Shown here in pieces: positions 235 to 10,028 of a stretch of 10,028 nucleotides of DNA; positions within the stretch are counted from its first letter, which is position 1; every line of letters begins with the position of its first letter. The notes under the pieces were generated by a model that saw only the letters and a program-made list of their open reading frames with translations, made no database searches and was not told the origin of the DNA. Position numbers and translations under genes: made by a program. Source of the stretch: Candidatus Diapherotrites archaeon CG08_land_8_20_14_0_20_30_16 (lineage in GTDB: Archaea; Iainarchaeota; Iainarchaeia; Iainarchaeales; 0-14-0-20-30-16); contig PEXK01000008.1 of NCBI GenBank assembly GCA_002779075.1, positions 1-10,028 on the forward strand, given 5' to 3'.

Positions 235-1329
235 ATGAAAATTATATTAATTGCAGGTACTAGACCTAATTTTATGAAAATTGCGCCTTTGTTAAAGGTT
301 TTAGAGTCTAATGATAACAAAAACTATTTTGATGTTAAATTAGTACATACAGGTCAACATTATGATCCTAATATGTCAGAAATATTTTTCCAAGAATTAG
401 CTATTAGAAAACCTGACTTTTATTTGGGTGTTGGTTCAGGAACACATGCTGAAATATCTGGTAAAATAATGATGGATTTAGAAAAGATACTTTTAGTTGA
501 AAAACCAGATTTGATTGTAGTTGTTGGAGATGTAGATTCAACAATGGCTAGTGCAATAAGCGCTAAGAAATTACATATTAAAGTTTGTCATGTTGAAGCA
601 GGACTAAGAAGTTATAATGAACAAATGACTGAAGAATGGAATAGAGTAATAACTGATCACATTTCTAATTTATTATTTGTAACTGAAGAATCAGGGCCTA
701 AAAATTTAAAAAAAGAAGGAATAAAGAAGAATGTTTATTTTGTTGGAAATGTAATGATCGATAGTTTATTTAATTGTTTAGATAGAGCAAAGCAAAAAGA
801 TACTTTACAAAGATTAGGTTTGCAAGAAAAGAAATTTATTTTTTGGACTATGCATAGACCAGAAACTGTTGATTATAAAGAATTATTACAAAAAGGTATG
901 AATATATTATATGAAGTTCAAAAGAAAATTAAAGTGGTTTGGCCTATTCATCCTAGAACTAAAAAAAGATTGCAAGAATTTGGAATTAAAACTGATTTTG
1001 AAAATGTTGTTTTTACTGAGCCTTTTGGTTATTTGGATAGTGTTAATTTAGAATTTAACGCTTTATGTATTCTTACTGATTCTGGCGGGATGCAAGAAGA
1101 AGCTAGTGCCTTGAATGTTCCTTGTTTAACTATGAGACCTCAAACTGAAAGACCAATAACTGTTAAATTAGGTACAAATATTATTGTTAATTTAAACAAG
1201 AAATTAATACTAAAAAATTTAGATTTAATATTAACTGGAAAATATCCTAAAATGCATTCTAATATCCCTTTATGGGATGGGAAAGCGAGTGAAAGAATTG
1301 TTCAAATCTTAAATGGGTTGAAACAATGA
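235..1329 (+). CDS. wecB: UDP-N-acetylglucosamine 2-epimerase (non-hydrolysing), WecB/MnaA family
   Basis: 364-aa ORF. The blocks MKIILIAGTRPNFMKIAPL, HTGQHYD, GVGSGTHAE, PDLIVVVGDVDSTMA and HVEAGLRSYN..EEWNRVITDH are hallmarks of this family. An SD-like GAAGGGGT sits at 223-230, just upstream of ATG 235. Confidence 0.9.
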   Translation: MKIILIAGTRPNFMKIAPLLKVLESNDNKNYFDVKLVHTGQHYDPNMSEIFFQELAIRKPDFYLGVGSGTHAEISGKIMMDLEKILLVEKPDLIVVVGDVDSTMASAISAKKLHIKVCHVEAGLRSYNEQMTEEWNRVITDHISNLLFVTEESGPKNLKKEGIKKNVYFVGNVMIDSLFNCLDRAKQKDTLQRLGLQEKKFIFWTMHRPETVDYKELLQKGMNILYEVQKKIKVVWPIHPRTKKRLQEFGIKTDFENVVFTEPFGYLDSVNLEFNALCILTDSGGMQEEASALNVPCLTMRPQTERPITVKLGTNIIVNLNKKLILKNLDLILTGKYPKMHSNIPLWDGKASERIVQILNGLKQ

Positions 1330-2591
1330 AGATTTGTGTTATTGGGCTAGGATATGTAGGGTTGCCAATTTATTTTCAAGCCAAATTCAAAGGCTTTGAT
1401 GTATTTGGGTTTGATGTTAACAAAAAGAAAATAGAAGAATTGAAAGATGGAATAACTGAAATAAAAGGTAGAATTCCTGAACAAGGTTTTGCAAAGTTTA
1501 AAGAAAATGATTTTACTTTTGATGTGACAAGACTAAAGGAGGCAGATGTTTATATTATCTGTGTTCCTACTCCAATAGATGAATTCAAAAACCCAGATTA
1601 TAGTTTTGTTATTGGGGCAACACAGTTAGTCATAGATAATGGAAAAAAAGGGTGTTTGGTTTGTGAAGAATCAACTGTTAATCCAGGAACTATGGAAGAA
1701 ATAGTAATGCCTCTTTTTGATAAAGCAAATTGGATAGTTGATAAAGATTATCATTTAGTTCATTGTCCGGAGAGAATTGACCCAGGAAATGAAAACTATG
1801 AGGTTGATAATATTCCTAGATGTATTGGTGGTTTGACTGAAAAATCTTTGGAAAAAGGTTATGAATTATATTCTAAACTGATTGATGCCCCTATTAAGAA
1901 AATGAGTTCTATAAGAGCAGCTGAAATGACTAAAATTGTAGAGAACACTTTTAGAGATGTAAATATTGCTTATGTGAATCAATTGGCAAAGATTGCAGAT
2001 GTAATTGATGTGGATATAAAAGAAGTAATTGAAGGTGCTGCAACTAAGCCTTATGCATTTATGCCTCATTGGCCTGGAATAGGTATTGGTGGGCATTGTA
2101 TTCCTGTTGATCCATATTATTTAATTGAATATTCAAAACACAAAGGTTTGGACCCCAAATTTTTATCTTTATCTAGGGAAGTAAATGATTCTATGCCAAA
2201 ATATAGTGTTGGTAAAGTTCAAGAAATCTTAAATGAATTAGGAAAGCCAATGAAAGATACAAAAGTTCTGATTTTGGGTTATTCTTATAAAGCAAATGTA
2301 AGCGATGAAAGAGAAACTCCTGCAAAAGAAGTAATTAAGATATTAAAAGAAAGGCTTGCAGATGTAAAAGTATATGATCCCTTTATATTAAACAAATCAG
2401 AATTTAATAATTTGCAAGACGCATTGAATTGGTCTGAAGCAGTAATTTTATGTACTGCTCATAATGAATTTGTTGATAATGTTCCTAAATTAATTAAAAA
2501 TAATGTTATTTTATTATTTGATGGTAGAAATGTATTTGACAAAGAATTATTTGTTAAAAAAGGAATTAGATATAAAGGTATAGGACGATAA
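1326..2591 (+). CDS. wecC: Nucleotide-sugar dehydrogenase of the UDP-glucose/GDP-mannose dehydrogenase superfamily, probably UDP-N-acetyl-D-mannosamine dehydrogenase (WecC/Cap5O-like)
   Basis: 421-aa ORF overlapping the wecB stop by 4 nt (ATGA at 1326-1329). It has an N-terminal Rossmann motif MKICVIGLGYVGLP, the catalytic-Cys block GIGIGGHCIPVDPYYL, and a C-terminal ILGYSYKANVSDERETPA. Substrate is inferred only from pairing with the 2-epimerase. Confidence 0.8.
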   Translation: MKICVIGLGYVGLPIYFQAKFKGFDVFGFDVNKKKIEELKDGITEIKGRIPEQGFAKFKENDFTFDVTRLKEADVYIICVPTPIDEFKNPDYSFVIGATQLVIDNGKKGCLVCEESTVNPGTMEEIVMPLFDKANWIVDKDYHLVHCPERIDPGNENYEVDNIPRCIGGLTEKSLEKGYELYSKLIDAPIKKMSSIRAAEMTKIVENTFRDVNIAYVNQLAKIADVIDVDIKEVIEGAATKPYAFMPHWPGIGIGGHCIPVDPYYLIEYSKHKGLDPKFLSLSREVNDSMPKYSVGKVQEILNELGKPMKDTKVLILGYSYKANVSDERETPAKEVIKILKERLADVKVYDPFILNKSEFNNLQDALNWSEAVILCTAHNEFVDNVPKLIKNNVILLFDGRNVFDKELFVKKGIRYKGIGR

Positions 2592-2596
2592 TTAAA

Positions 2597-2657
2597 ATTA
2601 TTCCAACAACTTACTAATAGATCTATTGTGATTCAAATTGAAAACAACTTTTGCAAA
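2597..2657 (-). repeat. Displaced copy A of the prs 3-prime end (pseudo C-terminus ..FAKVVFNLNHNRSISKLLE-stop)
   Basis: 55/61 nt identical to 6344-6404 with no indels. Reading frame and TAA stop are retained. It starts 5 nt after the wecC stop. Confidence 0.85.
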
Positions 2658-2854
2658 TCCTTTATAACTAATTTGCATTATTTGATAATTTAACCCAAGA
2701 TTATAAACATAATAAATGGCAATTTATAATCATTTAAGCGAAAACACATATAAATATATTATTTATAGGATTATAATGCGAGAACGCCAACCTAAAGGTA
2801 CACCAGGGTAGAATCCATTTATAAACAAATCCTATATTAAATACTTTTTGTTAT

Positions 2855-2907
2855 TTATAAGCATATTTCCGAAAAGGTATATAAACATTTCGATTTTATG
2901 CTTATAA
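2855..2907 (+). promoter_or_regulatory. 53-bp palindrome centred on a TATA-like box (arms TTATAAGCATA / TATGCTTATAA; inner CGAAA / TTTCG); candidate operator/promoter copy 1
   Basis: Perfect 11-bp inverted arms at 2855-2865 and 2897-2907, symmetric about base 2881 inside GGTATATAAAC. It contains the 23-bp core CGAAAAGGTATATAAACATTTCG (2870-2892), which recurs exactly at 2976-2998. Confidence 0.5.
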
Positions 2908-2965
2908 TTAAAATTGTAAGTGGTTTTAGACATAATTTCTTAAACATAAAAACCAATAATTTATT

Positions 2966-3008
2966 ATCATTTGAGCGAAAAGGTATATAAACATTTCGCT
3001 CATATGAT
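2966..3008 (+). promoter_or_regulatory. Promoter/operator of the 547-aa gene: BRE/TATA-like CGAAAAGGTATATAAAC embedded in a 43-bp palindrome
   Basis: The arms ATCATTTGAGCGAAA (2966-2980) and TTTCGCTCATATGAT (2994-3008) are reverse complements with one mismatch. They are symmetric about base 2987 in TATATAA, which lies 27 nt upstream of ATG 3014. That spacing is typical of an archaeal TATA box driving a leaderless mRNA. Confidence 0.55.
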
Positions 3009-3013
3009 TTTAT

Positions 3014-4657
3014 ATGAACAATTCTACAATAAAAGTTTTGGAAGTAATATTGCGAAAAAATTATGAATCTTTAAAAGAATTTAATCGAGACCTTGGTTTA
3101 AGTTTAAGTACCATAAGTGAAGCAATATTGAATTTAAAGAATTATAGCTTTGAATTTGATAACTCAGGCTATAAACTAATATCTAATAAAATGCTTACTA
3201 ATTTTAATAATTTATTAAATAATTATAATTTAAATATATTTAAAGATGCCAGAGAATCTATTTTGTATTCGTTGCTATTTTTTAATAAATTAAATGATAT
3301 ATCTGGATATGTTAATCTTTCAGATATTCACATTTTACGAAATTTAAATTATTTGCGTGAAAAAGGTGTAGTATATATAAAAGATGAAAGTTATTTTCTG
3401 AAAGAAGATCTAAAGCCAATTATTAAAGATATTTTTGAAACTATAATTGCCAAAAGCCAAGAATCAGATGCAGAATTAATAATAAAAAAAGGAATTATTT
3501 TTAAAATACTCCCTAAAGGTAAATTGTTACAAGGGAAATTAACCGCATTTTCTAAATTTAATGATTATGGGTTAATTTATTATACTGTATCTGATTATGG
3601 TGTAGATACCAAAGAACAATTATCAATAGAAGATATTTTTGTTCACGCTTTATTATTATCTAATTCTAAAAAAGATCTTGTATTATGTACTTGTTTTTAT
3701 CTAAAAAATAAATATAGATTAAATTTGACAAAATTAAGAAAGAAATTATCGCATTTTGAAATATATCCTGTTTATGAAAAAATGATTGATTATATTCGTA
3801 CGGGTGCTGATTTTGGTTTATTCTTGCCAAAGAAAGAATTTATCAGAATTTTAAATGAATATGACTTGTCTTTAGATCTCTTAACTCATAAAGAAAATTT
3901 AATCTCTTTTTTTGAAGATTTAGAAAAATTAATAAATATCCCGTTGAAAGTTTATTTGATTGGTGGTTGTAATTTAGTATTGAGGAATTTAAAGAATGTT
4001 ACTAAAGATATTGACGTTATTGTAAACTCCGAAACAGAATATCTTTATTTAGAGAAAATACTATTATCATTACAATTTGTTAGAGATACTAAACTTTCAA
4101 ATCAGACTGAACATTTACGAATAAGAATGGTTTTTAAGAAAGATAATAATCAAATAGATGTTTTTGTAAAAAGAGTTATGAATCAAATATTTTTAAATGA
4201 TTCTATGATTAAAAAAAGCGAAACAAAAAATTTTGGAAAATTAGATATAAAATTAGTTTCTTTAGAAGATATAATTTTATTTAAAGCAATTGCTGGTAGA
4301 GAAGGGGATATCGAAGATATATCTCGAATTATTGAAAGAAAAGATATAAATTGGAACTATCTATATAATCAATTCATATTACAATTTGATAACTCTAATG
4401 ATTTGTTATTTTTATCAATATTAGATACATTTGATATTATTAATAAAACAAATCCAATTCCAATTTTAAGTAAAATAGAGAGATTTGTTTTGGAAAAATC
4501 AATATTATTTGTTTGCAAAACTCCTAAATCCATTCCTAAAATTAAAAAAATATTGGAATTCCCAGATCATACTATAAGAAATGTAATAAATAAGCAAGTA
4601 AAAGACGGATTATTAAAATCAATTCTGGGAAAACCTATGTTATTCCAAACAATTTAA
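3014..4657 (+). CDS. Multi-wHTH / nucleotidyltransferase fusion protein (AbiEi-like regulator region fused to a polymerase-beta-fold NTase, plus a C-terminal wHTH); family not recognised
   Basis: 547-aa ORF. Two N-terminal wHTH-like segments are present (..LKEFNRDLGLSLSTISEAILNLK.., ..NLSDIHILRNLNYLREKGVVYIKD..). The NTase signature is IGGCNLVLRNLKNVTKDIDVIV (nt 3959-4024; G-G/S x9-13 D-x-D), followed by a third acidic motif QIDVFV and a helical LEDIILFKAIAGREGDIEDISRII. The C-terminus is wHTH-like (..IPKIKKILEFPDHTIRNVINKQVKDGLLK..). The protein is colinear with the 276-aa plus 230-aa pair downstream. Confidence 0.6.
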   Translation: MNNSTIKVLEVILRKNYESLKEFNRDLGLSLSTISEAILNLKNYSFEFDNSGYKLISNKMLTNFNNLLNNYNLNIFKDARESILYSLLFFNKLNDISGYVNLSDIHILRNLNYLREKGVVYIKDESYFLKEDLKPIIKDIFETIIAKSQESDAELIIKKGIIFKILPKGKLLQGKLTAFSKFNDYGLIYYTVSDYGVDTKEQLSIEDIFVHALLLSNSKKDLVLCTCFYLKNKYRLNLTKLRKKLSHFEIYPVYEKMIDYIRTGADFGLFLPKKEFIRILNEYDLSLDLLTHKENLISFFEDLEKLINIPLKVYLIGGCNLVLRNLKNVTKDIDVIVNSETEYLYLEKILLSLQFVRDTKLSNQTEHLRIRMVFKKDNNQIDVFVKRVMNQIFLNDSMIKKSETKNFGKLDIKLVSLEDIILFKAIAGREGDIEDISRIIERKDINWNYLYNQFILQFDNSNDLLFLSILDTFDIINKTNPIPILSKIERFVLEKSILFVCKTPKSIPKIKKILEFPDHTIRNVINKQVKDGLLKSILGKPMLFQTI

Positions 4658-4708
4658 ATAAAATTGGCAAAACATGGAATTCTTTATAAACAATTTCACT
4701 TTTTATTA

Positions 4709-4780
4709 ATTATTCCAACAACTTACTGATTGAAACATTGTGATTTAGATTGAAAATAACTTTTGCAAAGTCTTTTGCAA
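4709..4780 (-). repeat. Displaced copy B of the prs 3-prime end (pseudo C-terminus ..AKDFAKVIFNLNHNVSISKLLE-stop)
   Basis: 68/72 nt identical to 6344-6415 (59/61 over the first 61) with no indels. Frame and TAA stop are retained. It ends in an inverted repeat, TTGCAAA-GTCT-TTTGCAA. Confidence 0.9.
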
Positions 4781-4801
4781 TGCTAATCTCTATTTTGGAC
4801 C

Positions 4802-4855
4802 TAAGTATACCAGTATAGGAGTTATTTATAAGCTTTTCCTATCTTAGTATACTTA
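4802..4855 (+). promoter_or_regulatory. Promoter/operator of cassette 2: concentric inverted repeats centred on TTATTTATAAGC
   Basis: The outer arms TAAGTATAC (4802-4810) / GTATACTTA (4847-4855) and inner arms ATAGGA (4815-4820) / TCCTAT (4837-4842) share one symmetry centre at 4828/4829, inside TTTATAAG. That centre is 26-27 nt upstream of ATG 4855. The 12-mer TTATTTATAAGC also occurs at 2851-2862. Confidence 0.5.
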
Positions 4856-5685
4856 TGTTAAAGAAAGGAGAATTAAAAGTACTTTTGGAATTAATAAGTA
4901 AAAAGCAAAAAGATTTTAAATTAAGTGCATCTCAAAGGTATCTTTTAATGAATTCTTTAAAAACTAAAGGTGTTTTACTTAAGAATTCAACAATATGTTC
5001 TGATTTGATCTTAAAAATGTTGTTACTATGTGAGAAATACCCCAAATTACAAGAATTAATCTGTGATGGAAAATTATCAATATTATTTATTCTAATCAAT
5101 CCAAAATCTTTAGATGACCTAATTTTTTTAACACAATACACAAAAGCATATATATTACGAGTAATCAAAGAATCAAAAAGAATAGGTTTGGTAAGAAAGA
5201 TTGAAAACAAATATGTTCTCAATTCGGAAATATGGCAAGAATTTATTTCTATTTTGCCACATTATATGAGTATTTTCATGCAAGAATATAATGTTAATAA
5301 AGAAGCAAATCTTTATTATATTTCACCAAAGAAAATATTGTTTTCGTCTAAAAAGAAATATTCAGATTATTATATTGCTTCATTTTCTATATTACATAAA
5401 CACAATTTATTGATATATACTTTGGAAGAATATTATTCAAACATAAAAACAGAACAAATATTAGATATATTTAGAGACTTGCTTCTGGTTTTAGAAAAAG
5501 ATACTGATCATAGATTAAAAACCATTGCAGTTTTGTTTTATAAAAAATATGAATCATTATTAAAAGATCTAAATCTTTCTTTTGTAAATGATGTTAAATT
5601 AGTTTTAAAAGGACAAAAAGTTGCTGGTTTTTTGCCATTAAAGGAAATAATTGAAAAGGGCGAAGTTTATGATATCGAATTTTGA
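4855..5685 (+). CDS. wHTH-containing protein, paralogue of the N-terminal half of the 547-aa protein (AbiEi-like candidate regulator/antitoxin)
   Basis: 276-aa ORF. wHTH-like segments are ..SASQRYLLMNSLKTKGVLLKN.. and ..TKAYILRVIKESKRIGLVRKIENKYVL... Blocks EQILDIFRDLLLV, LFYKKY and GFLPLKEIIEKGEVYDI align with LSIEDIFVHALLL, CFYLKNKY and LFLPKKEFIRILNEYDL of the 547-aa protein. The ATG sits at leaderless distance from a TATA-like box. Confidence 0.6.
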   Translation: MLKKGELKVLLELISKKQKDFKLSASQRYLLMNSLKTKGVLLKNSTICSDLILKMLLLCEKYPKLQELICDGKLSILFILINPKSLDDLIFLTQYTKAYILRVIKESKRIGLVRKIENKYVLNSEIWQEFISILPHYMSIFMQEYNVNKEANLYYISPKKILFSSKKKYSDYYIASFSILHKHNLLIYTLEEYYSNIKTEQILDIFRDLLLVLEKDTDHRLKTIAVLFYKKYESLLKDLNLSFVNDVKLVLKGQKVAGFLPLKEIIEKGEVYDIEF

Positions 5686-6343
5686 ATCAATAAAATCTTT
5701 ATTTGTAGAATTGGATAAAAATGTAGAATCAAAAATAAATGTTTATATGCTGGGTGGCGGGGCATTATTGTTTTATGGTTCAAAACCAGAAACCAAAGAT
5801 ATTGATTTAGTTTGTGATGCAAATGATTATTTCAAATTATATTTTGCTTTAAAAAGAATTGGGTTTATTGCAAAAAATCCTTCAAGAGGGTATTTGAGAT
5901 TAAATATTGCAGAAATATTAGTGCGAGATGATTTTAGAATTGATTTATTTAATAATAAAGTTTGTGGTAATTTATCCTTAAGCGACACTATAAAAACAAG
6001 AAGTAAATTAGCTATTGATCTAAAAAATCTTAAACTTTATTGTTTTTCTCCAGAAGATATTTTTGTTTTTAAATCAATTACAGAAAGAGATGGAGATATA
6101 TTAGATTCAGAAAAAATAATTCAAATAGGTATAGATTGGAGTATTATATATTCTGAGATTTTATCACAAATCAAAGAGCATGACAAAGAAGCATGGGTTA
6201 CTTATTTTGTTGGAAGATTAGAAGCACTCATAGATAAAGGATTTGATATACCAATTTACAAAGATTCTAGAAAATTGGCAGAAGAATATTACGATCAGTT
6301 AGAATCAAGAATAACAAAGCTTAAAAAACAAAAGAGAATGTAG
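5651..6343 (+). CDS. Polymerase-beta-fold nucleotidyltransferase (AbiEii / DUF-type minimal NTase-like), paralogue of the C-terminal half of the 547-aa protein
   Basis: The ORF opens at TTG 5651, but the likely start is ATG 5669 (or entry by frameshift from the upstream ORF). The NTase signature is LGGGALLFYGSKPETKDIDLVC (nt 5750-5815), with a third acidic motif RIDLFN and PEDIFVFKSITERDGDILDSEKII matching the fused paralogue. It overlaps the upstream ORF by 17-35 nt. Its TAG stop at 6341-6343 lies 1 nt from the prs stop. Confidence 0.65.
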   Translation: MKRAKFMISNFESIKSLFVELDKNVESKINVYMLGGGALLFYGSKPETKDIDLVCDANDYFKLYFALKRIGFIAKNPSRGYLRLNIAEILVRDDFRIDLFNNKVCGNLSLSDTIKTRSKLAIDLKNLKLYCFSPEDIFVFKSITERDGDILDSEKIIQIGIDWSIIYSEILSQIKEHDKEAWVTYFVGRLEALIDKGFDIPIYKDSRKLAEEYYDQLESRITKLKKQKRM

Positions 6344-6415
6344 ATTATTCCAACAACTTACTGATTGAAACATTGTGATTCAGATTGAAAACAACTTTTG
6401 CAAAATATTTTGCAA
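6344..6415 (-). repeat. Functional copy C of the repeat, i.e. the authentic 3-prime end of prs (..VAKYFAKVVFNLNHNVSISKLLE-stop)
   Basis: This is the reference copy for repeats A and B and lies inside the prs ORF. It ends in a perfect 18-bp palindrome, TTGCAAAATATTTTGCAA (6398-6415). Confidence 0.9.
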
Positions 6416-7364
6416 CCGAAACTTCTTTGTACCATTTTGTGTTATTAACAAAACTATCTGGTTGATGAACAGCATCTGTTCCAATTACTAATTCAATAAT
6501 GTCGTCTTTATGTGCGTTTTCCATTAATTGTTTTGCTTCTCCATCTAAAAATGCTAAAGAGCAGGCAACATAGATTTTGTTTGCTTCATTTTCTTTAAGA
6601 GTTTTTGCAACATTAATTATTGTGCCACCAGTTGCAATCATATCATCAACAATTAAACAATCTTGCCCTTGAACTTCACCAATTAAAATTGTTTTTGCAA
6701 CCGTGCTTGGTTTAGAATAATCTCTTTGTTTGTAAACAATTGCTAATGGCCTTTGTAATTTCTCAGCATATTTTTGTGCATTCTTGACAGCACCAGTATC
6801 AGGAGCAATAACAGTTAAATTACTCAAATCTATGTTTGATTGAACATATTCGCAAATATTCTTTTTTGCATTTAATATTTCTAAAATTGCTTTTCGAAAA
6901 AAGCCTACAGTAGCAGGATTGTGAATATCTAAAGTAATAACTCTATTTGCCCCTAATTCTTCAAGTTCTCTTGCAACCAAAGCACAGGTAATACATTCTC
7001 TTGTTATTGCTTTGTCTTGACGAGCATAAGGAAAACTAGGCAAAATAACAGTAACACAGGATGCATCGCTTCTTCGAGCACTATCAATTGCTGTTTTCAA
7101 AGACATTATGTTTTCATCAATACTATATGGCAGATCCTTATTTGCAACATCTTGAATAATGTAAATATCTAATCCTCTTATACTGTTCAAAATTTCTGTT
7201 TTTATTTCTCTATTTGCAAAATGAGTTTCATTTGTTTTAATGTATTTGTAATTTATAGGGGTAGATTCTTTTTCAAAAATTTCAGGTAAGCAATTTAATA
7301 TTTTTTCAGCAAAAGGTTTTCCAGATTCACAAGCAATTATTCCTATTTCACCACGTGTATTCAA
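6345..7364 (-). CDS. prs: Ribose-phosphate pyrophosphokinase (PRPP synthetase)
   Basis: 339-aa ORF with Prs blocks IRGLDIYIIQ, PYARQDK, ITLDIHNP..GFF, VIAPDTGAVKNAQKYAEKL, the PRPP-binding loop LIVDDMIATGGTI and the C-terminal ..HNVSISKLLE. The start is TTG, preceded on the coding strand by a strong SD AGGTGAT (plus-strand 7368-7374) with a 3-nt spacer. Only 15 nt separate it from the HEPN stop. Confidence 0.9.
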   Translation of the reverse strand: MNTRGEIGIIACESGKPFAEKILNCLPEIFEKESTPINYKYIKTNETHFANREIKTEILNSIRGLDIYIIQDVANKDLPYSIDENIMSLKTAIDSARRSDASCVTVILPSFPYARQDKAITRECITCALVARELEELGANRVITLDIHNPATVGFFRKAILEILNAKKNICEYVQSNIDLSNLTVIAPDTGAVKNAQKYAEKLQRPLAIVYKQRDYSKPSTVAKTILIGEVQGQDCLIVDDMIATGGTIINVAKTLKENEANKIYVACSLAFLDGEAKQLMENAHKDDIIELVIGTDAVHQPDSFVNNTKWYKEVSVAKYFAKVVFNLNHNVSISKLLE

Positions 7365-7379
7365 AATATCACCTAATAC

Positions 7380-7790
7380 TCAGAGTTTGTGTTTTAAATT
7401 CGAGAACTCAATTGCAAAATCTAGAATCTCTTTTGCTACGTCTTCTGAATACACTGCATCATAATCTGCATCTTGTCTAGCATACATTGCTGCTTTGAAA
7501 TAAATTATATATTTTGATTCTAGCATTCGTTTTCTACAAAATTCGTCCAATAACAAATATAAAGCATAATGACTTTTTTCTCTATAACCCTTTTTGTAAA
7601 TTAATGCTCTTGCAATATGAAAAATACAATAATATGCTTGGATAATGCTCCATTTGTGGTTTCCATCTTCAAAAGATTCTTTTGCGTTTTTCAAATCTTT
7701 TTCAGATTCTTCCAATTCTTTATTAATCAGTTCGGGAGAACAAGATTCCACTTTCAACAAGCCATTATCAATCATTTCTTGAATATTCAT
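7380..7790 (-). CDS. HEPN domain protein, partner of the upstream MNT (HEPN/MNT toxin-antitoxin module)
   Basis: 136-aa all-helical ORF. WSIIQAYYCIFHIARALIYKKGYREKSHYAL and ARQDADYD..SEDVAKEILDFAIEF resemble the HEPN family paired with minimal nucleotidyltransferases. It has a 4-nt ATGA overlap with the MNT gene (7787-7790). Confidence 0.75.
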   Translation of the reverse strand: MNIQEMIDNGLLKVESCSPELINKELEESEKDLKNAKESFEDGNHKWSIIQAYYCIFHIARALIYKKGYREKSHYALYLLLDEFCRKRMLESKYIIYFKAAMYARQDADYDAVYSEDVAKEILDFAIEFSNLKHKL

Positions 7791-8320
7791 AATAATCTGA
7801 CCTTATTCTTTTCTAATTCTTTGTAAAATGCAGGATTCTTTTTTATCATACTAGCATATTCTAAAGGGGTTTTGCAAATTATATTTAAAGGGAGATTTAA
7901 CATTTTGAATTTAGATTCAACACCCCAGATTAAATTACGATTCTTTGTAACAATAAAAAGATCAATATCACTGTGTTTATCCGAAGTGCCTTTAGCGTAT
8001 GACCCAAATAAATATATTTCTAATTCTTTAGTTTTTAAATCTTTTAATAAAGTAGCAAATAAAAATATAAAATACGCTTTTTTTAGTAGAAAATATGCTT
8101 CAGATTCAATTACAGAGTAAAAATAAGCATTACCTTTTTTTTCTTTTGATATTAAATTACAATTACATAAAGACTCTAAAACTGTTAATAAGGTAACTTT
8201 GCTTTGCTTTGTTTGTTTTTGTATTTCTTTGTAACTTAAGTCTTTTGACTTATCGAAGAATATTTTCAATACGCTTAAATAAGAATTATTAAATAAAAAA
8301 TTTATTGTTCTTTTTTGCAT
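7787..8320 (-). CDS. Minimal nucleotidyltransferase (MNT) with an N-terminal wHTH extension
   Basis: 177-aa ORF. It carries the classic MNT signature LFGSYAKGTSDKHSDIDLFIV (G-S x10 D-x-D). The N-terminal ~90 aa look like a wHTH (LSYKEIQKQTKQSKVTLLTVLESLCNCNLISKEKKGNAYFYSV). It is the first gene of an apparent MNT-HEPN-prs operon. Confidence 0.8.
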   Translation of the reverse strand: MQKRTINFLFNNSYLSVLKIFFDKSKDLSYKEIQKQTKQSKVTLLTVLESLCNCNLISKEKKGNAYFYSVIESEAYFLLKKAYFIFLFATLLKDLKTKELEIYLFGSYAKGTSDKHSDIDLFIVTKNRNLIWGVESKFKMLNLPLNIICKTPLEYASMIKKNPAFYKELEKNKVRLL

Positions 8321-8490
8321 AAAATATATATGACAGATTGGTTTAAAAAACTATCCCGTTTGGTATAGAAAACTATACTGCTTTTAAAATTGCATTTGAA
8401 AATTATTTCCAAAAACTATTTAAATCTAGCTAACTTTTATATTATAACATTAACTTCTATATATGTAATTGGTTGTATTTGTTGATCCCT

Positions 8491-9024
8491 ATGGATATTA
8501 TAAAGGTTATTTTTTGGGGCAGAGGCGGACAAGGTGTTAAAACTTGTGCAGAAGTGCTGGCAAGAGCTGCTTTTAATCAGGGCTTAGAAGTGCAGGCATT
8601 TCCTGAATATGGTCCAGAACGCTCTGGGGCACCTGTTAGATCCTTTTTGAAAATATCTTCAAAACCTATAAAAGAACAGTGCCAGATAACTGATGCTGAT
8701 TTTGTTGTTATTTTAGATAGCTCTTTATTGCAAACAAATCTTAAAGAGGGTATTTTAAACCAAAAAACAGCCAAATATTTAATAAATTCTAAAATTTCCT
8801 CAGAAATAGCAAATGCTAAATTTATAGATGCATCAAGTATAGCAATTAGACATTTAGGCAAAGATCTACCAAATATTGCATTGTCTGGTGCACTCATTAA
8901 AATGATAAATATAATTAAATTAGAGAGCTTGGAACAAGCAGTAAAAGAAGTTTTAGCAAAGAAACCAGATTTAATAGATGTAAACATAAAAGCATTAAAA
9001 GAAAGTTATAATTTGATAAAGTGA
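8491..9024 (+). CDS. porG: 2-oxoacid (pyruvate):ferredoxin oxidoreductase gamma subunit
   Basis: IIKVIFWGRGGQGVKTCAEVLARAAFNQGLEVQAFPEYGPERSGAPVRSFLKIS matches the conserved G-x-G-G-Q-G / E-x-R-G-(G/A) N-terminal half of POR/VOR/KOR gamma subunits. The ORF opens at TTG 8473, but ATG 8491 is preferred because it gives the usual short N-terminus. A TATATAT box lies at 8458-8464. Confidence 0.8.
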   Translation: MDIIKVIFWGRGGQGVKTCAEVLARAAFNQGLEVQAFPEYGPERSGAPVRSFLKISSKPIKEQCQITDADFVVILDSSLLQTNLKEGILNQKTAKYLINSKISSEIANAKFIDASSIAIRHLGKDLPNIALSGALIKMINIIKLESLEQAVKEVLAKKPDLIDVNIKALKESYNLIK

Positions 9025-9367: not shown

Positions 9368-10028
9368 ATGTTGATAAATATGAATAAAGAAAATGCAATG
9401 GTTGTGTTTGAAGGAAAAAAGATTAGAAATCAATGGTATAATAATGAATGGTATTATTCTGTTATTGATGTAATTGGTATTTTAACAAATAGTGAAGATC
9501 CTAGAAATTATTGGAAAGTGTTAAAATATAGATTAAATGGAGAAGGTTCTGAGTCGGTTACAAAATGTAACCAACTGAAATTGCAAGCATCTGATGGTAA
9601 ATTTTATGAAACAGATTGTGCTAATACCCAAAATATGTTTCGAATAATTCAATCAATACCCTCTTTAAAAGCTGAACCGTTTAAGCTTTGGTTAGCCCAA
9701 ATAGGTTATGAAAGAATACAAGAAATAGAAAATCCAGAATTAGCACAAGATAGAGCTAAAGAATATTATGAATTAAAAGGTTATCCTAAAGATTGGGTTG
9801 ATAAAAGAGTAAGAGGTATTGCAATTAGGCAAGAATTAACTGATGAATGGAAAAATAGAGGAATAAAAGAAAATAGAGATTTTGCAATATTAACTAATGA
9901 AATCTCTAAAGCAACTTTTGATAAAACAATAGAAGAATACAAACAATTCAAAGGTTTGCCAAGCAAGAAAAATGCAAACTTAAGAGATCATATGACTGAT
10001 TGGGAATTGATATTAACAATGGTTGGAG
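9368..10028 (+). CDS. Bro-N domain protein (phage antirepressor / DinD-like family), 3-prime end beyond the window
   Basis: The frame is open from ATG 9368 (alternative ATG 9380) to the window edge; it is absent from the ORF track because no stop is reached. VVFEGKKIRNQWYNNEWYYSVIDVIGILTNSEDPRNYWKVLKYRL, LKLQASDGKFYETDCANTQNMFRIIQSIPSLKAEPFKLWLAQIGYERIQEIENPELA and RGIAIRQELTDEW match this widespread family closely. TTTATATAT at 9338-9346 is centred 26 nt upstream of ATG 9368. Confidence 0.8.
   Translation, partial: MLINMNKENAMVVFEGKKIRNQWYNNEWYYSVIDVIGILTNSEDPRNYWKVLKYRLNGEGSESVTKCNQLKLQASDGKFYETDCANTQNMFRIIQSIPSLKAEPFKLWLAQIGYERIQEIENPELAQDRAKEYYELKGYPKDWVDKRVRGIAIRQELTDEWKNRGIKENRDFAILTNEISKATFDKTIEEYKQFKGLPSKKNANLRDHMTDWELILTMVG

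Follow-up and report, generated by a model that had tools for sequence, protein, structure and literature searches.

Archaeal elements of the SSV and pNOB8 types use a tyrosine integrase and tRNA targets and duplicate the 3' part of the host gene as an att site of tens of nucleotides, and serial integrations and decayed remnants are known for elements at archaeal tRNA genes. Campbell-type pop-in/pop-out of non-replicating circles by homologous recombination is the routine means of gene replacement in Haloferax, Thermococcus and Sulfolobus. Tandem accretion at a protein-coding gene's 3' end has been described for cis-mobilizable elements (CIMEs), ICEs (integrative and conjugative elements) and IMEs (integrative and mobilizable elements), for example the ICESt1/ICESt3-related elements at fda of Streptococcus thermophilus; the definition of CIMEs and the accretion model, which covers elements that lost their integrase, are summarised in PMC5704250. 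Here we describe a 10,028-nt stretch of AT-rich archaeal DNA (the window), from the metagenome-assembled genome of a Candidatus Diapherotrites (DPANN) archaeon from Crystal Geyser, in which the 3' terminus of the ribose-phosphate pyrophosphokinase gene prs occurs three times and bounds two small cassettes. Gene-end, att-like repeats with tandem accretion are of a known kind; the DPANN host, the integrase-free mini-cassettes and the evidence for homology-driven recombination set this case apart.

A repeat search and MAFFT alignment identified three direct, ungapped copies of the prs 3' terminus, all reading on the minus strand: copy A at 2597–2668, copy B at 4709–4780 and copy C at 6344–6415. 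Copy C is the working 3' terminus of prs itself, an intact gene of 339 aa (6345–7364, minus strand; Pfam Pribosyltran_N, Pribosyltran and Pribosyl_synth) whose homologs carry the name ribose-phosphate diphosphokinase. Copy B matches copy C at 68/72 positions (94%), with only 2 mismatches in the first 61 nt (59/61), and copy A matches it at 55/61 (90.16% over 61 nt) before decaying over 2658–2668. The first 19 nt are exact in all three copies and the first 37 nt in B and C. The 61-nt pattern, allowing up to 3 mismatches, gave 2 sites as compared to 0.00 expected in 200 shuffles. Further similarity between copy B and prs past 72 nt (EIS vs EVS) was judged not significant (7/16 nt). Translated on the minus strand, all three flanking repeats encode the prs C-terminus followed by its stop codon, so that each is a duplicated end of the host gene: the reading of copy A ends in KGFAKVVFNLNHNRSISKLLE, that of copy B is IAKDFAKVIFNLNHNVSISKLLE and that of copy C is VAKYFAKVVFNLNHNVSISKLLE. 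The outer boundary of every copy lies 1 nt past the prs stop. On the left chromosomal flank, wecC (1326–2591, plus strand; UDP-ManNAc/UDP-glucose dehydrogenase family, Pfam UDPG_MGDP_dh N, central and C domains, E = 4e-40 to 2e-19) ends at 2591, and copy A starts 5 nt later. Three same-orientation copies free of indels, at these positions and identities, with copy A 5 nt past the wecC stop, had been reported in an earlier note made from the letters of this DNA, and all of this was confirmed.

The gene map, based on a list of open reading frames (ORFs) and on Pfam, places three plus-strand cargo genes between the copies: cargo1 (3014–4657; 547 aa) in cassette 1, and cargo2a (4855–5685; 276 aa) and cargo2b (5651–6343; 230 aa from the TTG at 5651, 224 aa from the ATG at 5669) in cassette 2. 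All of the data agree with serial insertion in which the gene terminus was duplicated. This reading is supported, as is that of the islet as a stack of two self-contained cassettes, each acquired on its own, behind the 3' terminus of the essential gene prs, to judge from the comparisons given below. Cargo1 and the cargo2 proteins are only 26–29% identical to each other and each has closer homologs elsewhere (73% and 53% identity for cargo1, 68–72% for cargo2), which indicates that the cassettes have separate origins. Copy A would then be the oldest displaced prs terminus and copy B, beside cargo1, a later one.

In this population the three-copy structure is genuine and fixed. The order cargo1, copy B, cargo2, prs recurs in at least 12 contigs from other samples, each assembled separately; three of the contigs (L001/L027 and L026) span A, B and C, and nine more (L002/L028, L025 and L029–L034) span B or both B and C. 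The agreement of these contigs from other samples rules out an assembly artefact. Copy B carries a single-nucleotide polymorphism in some strains. Several contigs end at prs-end copies: that of a 99%-identical strain (L021; 2597–2672) ends 4 nt past copy A, L003 (1–2027) ends 12 nt past the prs stop, and L042 (1–1799) likewise stops at or just beyond a prs-end copy. These ends are consistent with repeats or strain variation breaking assemblies there. We also scanned the 21-nt core of the repeat against IMG/VR and JGI metagenome contigs. Matches in these collections were confined to this organism's own contigs, at the prs locus, and to chance 21-mers, which rules out a dispersed short repeat (like a miniature inverted-repeat transposable element or a repetitive extragenic palindrome), and with it the possibility raised in the earlier note of a dispersed repeat unrelated to prs. 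No free element with a prs-end attP and an integrase was found in the same scans.

The prs locus of the closest relative (L042; prs 81% identical) shows an intermediate arrangement: the gene for the gamma subunit of pyruvate:ferredoxin oxidoreductase (POR-gamma), then prs, then a convergent cargo1 homolog whose end, RNVVNKLIKDGLLKSISGKPILFQTIK and a stop codon, lies 7 nt past the prs stop. Cassette 2 is absent. The window's succession of cargo1 end, 51 nt and copy B is collinear, at ~80% identity, with the L042 succession of cargo1-homolog end, 7 nt and intact prs end. Because of this collinearity, copy B is read as the displaced former working end of prs, which cassette 2 (4781–6343) and the new terminus C now separate from its gene. 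Whether gained in the window or lost in the relative, cassette 2 behaves, on this alignment, as an indel unit bounded by the repeats. Of the two cassettes, only this one is missing at the corresponding site of a close relative.

More distant relatives carry other genes at the same place. In three with prs at 77% identity (L007, L008 and L011), a PIN-RHH pair adjoins the prs stop, and neither the HEPN-MNT pair found upstream of prs in the window nor the repeat is present. This VapBC-like pair (L007:7256–7908; L011:2408–3060) takes the position that cargo2b has in the window. No prs-end copies lie beside it in L007 or L011. In L007, four other genes as well as the PIN-RHH pair stand between wecC and prs. 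The varied cargo at the prs stop among relatives identifies the prs 3' flank as a variable site for cassettes resembling toxin–antitoxin (TA) systems. Different cargo at the same place is found, though without the repeats between which the earlier note proposed looking for it, and the arrangement is not one that all relatives share: cassette 2 is missing from L042, and neither cassette is present in L007 or L011. The collinearity with L042 and the distance between the cargos likewise support the earlier proposal of serial events that left displaced prs ends as repeats.

No gene-end repeats were found around the cargo homologs in L023, L024, L046 and L047. The cargo1 homolog of L024 lies beside a HAD gene, with no prs fragments. 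In three DPANN genomes a winged-helix–nucleotidyltransferase module lies directly downstream of wecB or wecC (L023:8420–12200; L039:1–810; window 235–2591); the 3' flank of this sugar-nucleotide operon may be a hot spot itself, or the position may be inherited synteny. The identity of wecB (235–1329, plus strand, in the window), at 44%, was dropped as a clock for horizontal transfer of cassette 2, because the wecB genes may not be orthologous; between the window and L023, wecB identity is likewise just 44%, with POR-gamma at 73%.

The cassettes are compact. GC content is 0.20–0.25 in the islet versus 0.28–0.33 in the flanks, in support of the earlier description of the islet as accessory DNA. 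Each cassette is only 1.6–2.1 kb long and consists of a promoter-like palindromic region followed by a winged-helix/DUF6036-DUF2204 nucleotidyltransferase module, which is fused in cassette 1 (cargo1) and, in cassette 2, divided between two genes that overlap by 17–35 nt (cargo2a and cargo2b). Just 74 nt separate copy B from the start of cargo2a, and the cargo2b stop directly adjoins copy C. No further ORF of at least 100 aa was found in 2592–6343, Pfam shows only helix-turn-helix (HTH) and nucleotidyltransferase domains and no integrase, transposase or remnant of one in the islet, and there is no tRNA in the window. Pfam, the ORF list and the tRNA search agree here with what the earlier note had seen.

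Upstream of cargo1, a repeat search and DNA folding revealed three promoter-like 72-nt units on the plus strand (2704–2775, 2835–2906 and 2941–3012, together spanning 2704–3012), the third of which directly adjoins the cargo1 ATG. Units 2 and 3, for which folds were made, are palindromes around an A/T-rich TATA-like loop (z = −3.1 for 2835–2912 and z = −5.0 for 2941–3013). Over 53 nt, unit 1 shares 90.6% identity with the promoter of the cargo1 homolog in L023 (L023:9925–10005), and the proteins are just 53% identical. The units are probably an autoregulated promoter/operator for the winged-helix protein; they could be either remnants of earlier cassettes or a strongly constrained operator. 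Between units 1 and 2 lies a GC-richer stretch of 60 nt with an 11-codon ORF (2776–2834). The promoter regions compared were window 2704–3012, L023:9925–10005 and L024:27–100. In cassette 2, an inverted-repeat search found an imperfect palindrome around a TTATTTATAA loop (4790–4867, plus strand), a putative promoter/operator that lies directly upstream of the cargo2a start and overlaps it, with an energetically weak fold (z = −0.84). An analogous palindrome with other arm sequences lies upstream of the homolog in L035. The sole Rfam hit, to mir-26 at 4789–4868 (39.8 bits, gathering score 57), was rejected as a chance match to the palindromic promoter and not a miRNA.

Proteins identical to the cargo are recorded from the CG08_land genome of Candidatus Diapherotrites, that for cargo1 as hypothetical. 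Cargo1 comprises, by Pfam, winged-helix domains, an HVO_2833_C-like middle region, a DUF2204/DUF6036 nucleotidyltransferase domain of the Pol-beta type and a C-terminal TrmB-like HTH. Cargo2a is equivalent to the N-terminal half of this family (winged helix and middle region) and aligns with the N-terminal halves of the fused homologs; cargo2b is a DUF6036 nucleotidyltransferase (Pfam E = 2e-7). By BLASTP, cargo2a is 26% identical to residues 78–215 of cargo1, and cargo2b is 29% identical to residues 289–457 (E = 2e-17). The earlier remark that the cargo genes are homologous only at motif level is roughly right, given these identities and the E = 2e-17 of the nucleotidyltransferase half. The cargo1 family has 547 cluster representatives at E ≤ 1e-3 among 1.84 billion, mostly fused proteins of ~550 aa. 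Cargo1 and cargo2b had no match in PDB by sequence, the cargo had none in IMG/VR or among GenBank phages, and PADLOC gave no significant cargo match (best NDT_II-A, E = 0.005). The AlphaFold model of cargo2a is poor (pLDDT, the predicted local distance difference test score, 64), and a literature search on DUF2204, DUF6036 and HVO_2833 found nothing relevant.

On archaeal plasmids, an HTH and DUF6036 module occurs in 93 PLSDB records, and an overlapping two-gene operon of this kind is present on pHV4 (L048, 10786–12518) and on a Thermococcus profundus plasmid (L049, 20716–22375). An identically scoring DUF6036 match (residues 298–527, 30.1% identity to the query) recurs on plasmids of many haloarchaeal genera, and the pHV4 copy that was inspected is flanked by insertion sequence elements and TnpB. 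This distribution suggests that the module spreads horizontally.

Judged by domain architecture, the cargo would be TA-like or AbiE-like in function. Like AbiE, which pairs a winged-HTH AbiEi with the nucleotidyltransferase AbiEii, and like the neighbouring HEPN-MNT pair, cassette 2 is a two-gene operon of overlapping genes for an HTH regulator and a Pol-beta-superfamily nucleotidyltransferase; a palindromic promoter, plasmid-borne relatives and variable hot spots are also shared with AbiE-type modules. Unlike AbiEii, which belongs to DUF1814, the cargo nucleotidyltransferase is DUF6036/DUF2204 by Pfam, PADLOC finds no AbiE match, and most members of the cargo family are single fused proteins of ~550 aa. 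The cassettes also resemble integron cassettes, being small units of a single function, stacked in one orientation at one site and presumably able to circularise, but they have no attC-like conserved end, IntI or attI, each has its own promoter, and the repeats are host gene ends.

A parallel system was found at gatE in a second archaeon from Crystal Geyser, whose chromosome holds the cluster mates of the closest cargo2a homolog (L036:1529–5836, L038, L039 and L043). The order is a gatE'::X ORF (~247 aa), ORF43, a 2a-like gene, a 2b-like gene and intact gatE. Relative to the window, the module is 68% identical in cargo2a (P0137) and 72% in cargo2b (the homolog in L036). The first ~65 codons of gatE'::X are the GatE N-terminus (NCBIfam E = 5e-21), so that the left gatE copy is fused in frame to an unrelated part X of ~180 aa while the right copy is the intact gene. 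The two gatE 5' copies form direct repeats of ~193 nt, 77–86% identical and exactly 2475 nt apart. Intact gatE begins 22 nt behind the cargo2b homolog and, given this spacing, may now be transcribed from the cassette.

One contig from another sample (L035, 1–2616) has an exact terminal overlap of 141 nt, the assembler's k, so that its unit is 2475 nt long. It holds one gatE' copy, which has 2b ahead of it, like the right chromosomal copy, and X behind it, like the left. Compared site by site, the repeat of L035 matches the right copy of L039 up to column ~121 and of the left type from column ~158. The hybrid repeat and the exact unit length identify L035 as a product of recombination between the two gatE repeats, which would be either an excised circle or a tandem amplification. 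As an isolated de Bruijn cycle, it suggests that the unit may outnumber the chromosomal junctions in that sample.

The gatE repeats also vary between strains. Right-copy haplotypes of 99%-identical strains differ in the point at which they switch from left-type to gatE-type sequence, and hence the crossover points in the gatE system are variable. In two strains, all sequence to the right of a point 17 nt inside gatE' is shared at 99% identity, and the left flanks are unrelated, an RNA ligase (L036:1–1545) versus wecB (L043:1–135 and L039:1–826); their first gatE-like codons differ (MDYKKIGLK vs MTNYSELGLK), each strain keeping its own, and the breakpoint lies exactly at the repeat boundary. 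As for a fixed crossover core, the copies in the window differ too little to place a crossover, and at gatE the switch points vary between strains. The homology between cassette 2 and the gatE unit covers only 4819–6297 of the window and stops short of both cassette ends, so there are no conserved termini for a dedicated recombinase to recognise. The gatE pattern, with another gene end and strain-variable tracts, fits homologous recombination better than a fixed att core.

As the mechanism we lean, though only slightly, towards Campbell-type pop-in and pop-out through the gene-end homology. A small circular DNA carrying the last ~60–80 nt of prs would insert by a single crossover; the crossover within the homology would give prs a complete terminus (now copy C) and push the previous terminus outward. 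Copy A would have been displaced first and so would now lie beside wecC, and copy B, displaced second, would still lie beside cargo1. The direct repeats could then recombine, and the cassette would pop out as a circle or be amplified. Such recombination would most likely use the gene-end homology itself and the host's homologous recombination, or a site-specific recombinase encoded elsewhere may act in trans. For the window's own cassettes we infer the circular intermediate, gain rather than loss, and the enzymology. As in Campbell integration, a single crossover in a host fragment leaves the insert between direct repeats, which can recombine and pop it out, and a fragment with a gene end leaves one intact copy of the gene. 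Campbell integration is a laboratory construct; here it would be a way of life that small cassettes follow naturally and repeatedly.

Several results favour this mechanism. The islet has no recombinase and no debris, and its cassettes are pared down and leave little space between their parts. Two host gene ends serve the same module, with ~70 nt of homology at one and ~190 nt at the other. Crossover tracts vary, and there is a product that has a hybrid repeat and exactly the length of the unit. The outer boundary at the stop codon is explained too, since only a fragment with the very end of an essential gene leaves that gene intact on a single crossover. Site-specific integration, which the earlier note named as the mechanism, is not borne out by an islet that is full of cargo genes and promoters, has no integrase or remnant, and has a counterpart at gatE with variable tracts.

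Other observations weigh against Campbell-type insertion at prs. The empty wecC-prs junction that would represent the state before cassette 1, and that the earlier note had envisaged, was found in no relative; L007 has genes and the PIN-RHH pair there. In L023 the cargo1 homolog stands between wecB and POR-gamma, the same wecB…POR frame, without prs fragments or repeats, and cargo1 may have been resident for long and not be a newcomer. Contigs from more than 10 samples show neither a circle or excision product of the window's cassettes nor a variant that lacks them, and L035 could be a tandem amplification and not a free circle. Copies A and B differ from C at 6 and 4 sites, which is too few to demonstrate a hybrid composition of element and host. 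The model gives no origin for the first circle carrying a host gene end, and the search for a recombinase covered this organism's contigs of up to 12 kb.

The main rival is that two integrase-encoding elements integrated serially at an att site in the prs end and decayed, CIME-like, to an addiction-like module with att repeats, any present mobility then depending on an integrase in trans. TA-like modules are typical last survivors of decayed elements, direct repeats of 60–70 nt from a gene end are the classic attL/attR footprint, and the outer 19–37 nt are exactly conserved between copies. As in the accretion of elements that lost their integrase (PMC5704250), the units here stand in tandem at one gene end, lack an integrase and leave the target gene intact; the retention of attL- and attR-like ends with integration and transfer genes absent is a descriptive match to a CIME only. 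The islet, however, has no integrase inside it, as an autonomous site-specific element would, and no pseudogene or remnant of one, and it is tightly packed, from the 74 nt between copy B and cargo2a to the cargo2b stop adjoining C. Three independent units, two here and one at gatE, would all have been reduced to the same module, and the modules have no conserved ends. The host, a DPANN archaeon, the size of the units (1.6–2.1 kb), the lack of decay debris and of a known cognate integrase, and the related module at another gene and at its opposite end (gatE 5', ~193 nt), with crossover tracts that vary between strains, all differ from CIME accretion. From the SSV- and pNOB8-type elements the window differs in having a protein-coding gene as target and neither tRNA nor integrase. 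We regard serial decay as improbable, if still the alternative most to be reckoned with.

Less credible is the proposal that a whole donor prs came with each cargo by homologous replacement, A and B being the stubs of deleted redundant prs genes. Recombination with relatives that carry cargo beside prs is plausible, given L042, and copy B shares a few states with the prs of relatives and not with C (ATT, and a GAC codon derived from TAC). Two independent deletions would nevertheless both have to end 61–80 nt from the stop with the terminus kept exactly, a tblastn search with the whole prs protein detects no further prs fragments, and the hybrid-repeat product of exact unit length at gatE points to recombination between short repeats; we consider this origin quite unlikely.

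Tandem duplication in situ of a unit made of prs end and cargo, with the cargos diverging while gene conversion kept the repeats alike, would account for cargo1 and cargo2a/2b being of one family, in the same orientation and of similar unit architecture, and gene-end repeats are indeed seen to undergo conversion at gatE. The units are, however, not each other's closest relatives: cargo1 and cargo2 are 26–29% identical versus 53–73% to homologs elsewhere, and since each has closer homologs in other genomes, the split between them predates these organisms. Relatives without the arrangement (L042 without cassette 2; L007 and L011 without both) and a geometry that probably cannot yield copy A upstream of the first unit likewise leave this explanation with very little probability, and the earlier note's argument against a simple ancient tandem duplication holds on the grounds of the cargo identities and of these relatives. 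Finally, it is scarcely believable that the copies were kept for a function, such as plus-strand antisense to the prs mRNA 3' end or terminators: they do lie in the 3' regions of plus-strand genes, and A is 90% identical to C though the adjacency of cargo1 and prs predates the split from L042, whose prs end is ~84% identical to that of the window as counted by hand, but 6 vs ~10 differences in 61 nt are too few to show constraint, copy B varies from strain to strain, cargo1 transcripts probably end ahead of B at a T5 run, and the origin of the copies is left unexplained.

The opposite side of prs has an insert of its own. A HEPN-MNT pair (HEPN, 7380–7790, and MNT, 7787–8320, both minus strand; PADLOC PDC-M05-like) is inserted between the prs start and the POR-prs promoter block, which is conserved and retained at ~8401–8452 ahead of POR-gamma (8473–9024, plus strand). 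The pair is absent from L042, L003, L007 and L011, and no flanking duplication was found when looked for around it in the window. With HEPN-MNT on one side and the cargo on the other, prs is flanked on both sides by TA-like cassettes. Further right, a gene with a Bro-N domain (window 9368–10028, continuing in L025:6498–7355) lies within the pyruvate:ferredoxin oxidoreductase cluster, between the genes for the delta-like and alpha subunits, and the POR-beta/TPP subunit of ~675 aa has a faint LAGLIDADG match, maybe an intein. Both features are kept in a 77% relative (L007:4373–5302 and 1180–3204).

How small TA-like or defence-like cassettes move between genomes without a recombinase of their own is an old open question, and the mobile elements of DPANN archaea are barely known. 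The prs locus and its gatE counterpart offer a natural case in which duplicated ends of essential genes bound units of cassette size, a relative shows an intermediate state, and there is a recombinant product, circular or tandem. Both loci are from Crystal Geyser, where sequencing has been deep and often repeated, which makes the prediction of pop-in and pop-out directly testable. Tentatively, and with considerable doubt, we suggest that they represent a family of integrase-free mini-elements (1.6–2.5 kb) in DPANN archaea, each possibly combining an autoregulated winged-helix and DUF6036 module with a captured end of an essential gene (prs 3' or gatE 5') and moving by pop-in and pop-out through borrowed homology, with stacking, circles and, at gatE, an essential gene placed behind the cassette promoter. 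A part in maintenance or recombination might even fall to the proteins of the module itself. If pop-in and pop-out holds, accessory genes would have a way into streamlined genomes that needs no recombinase, by borrowed gene-end homology, and short orphan copies of a gene terminus would be a practical marker for such cassettes elsewhere.

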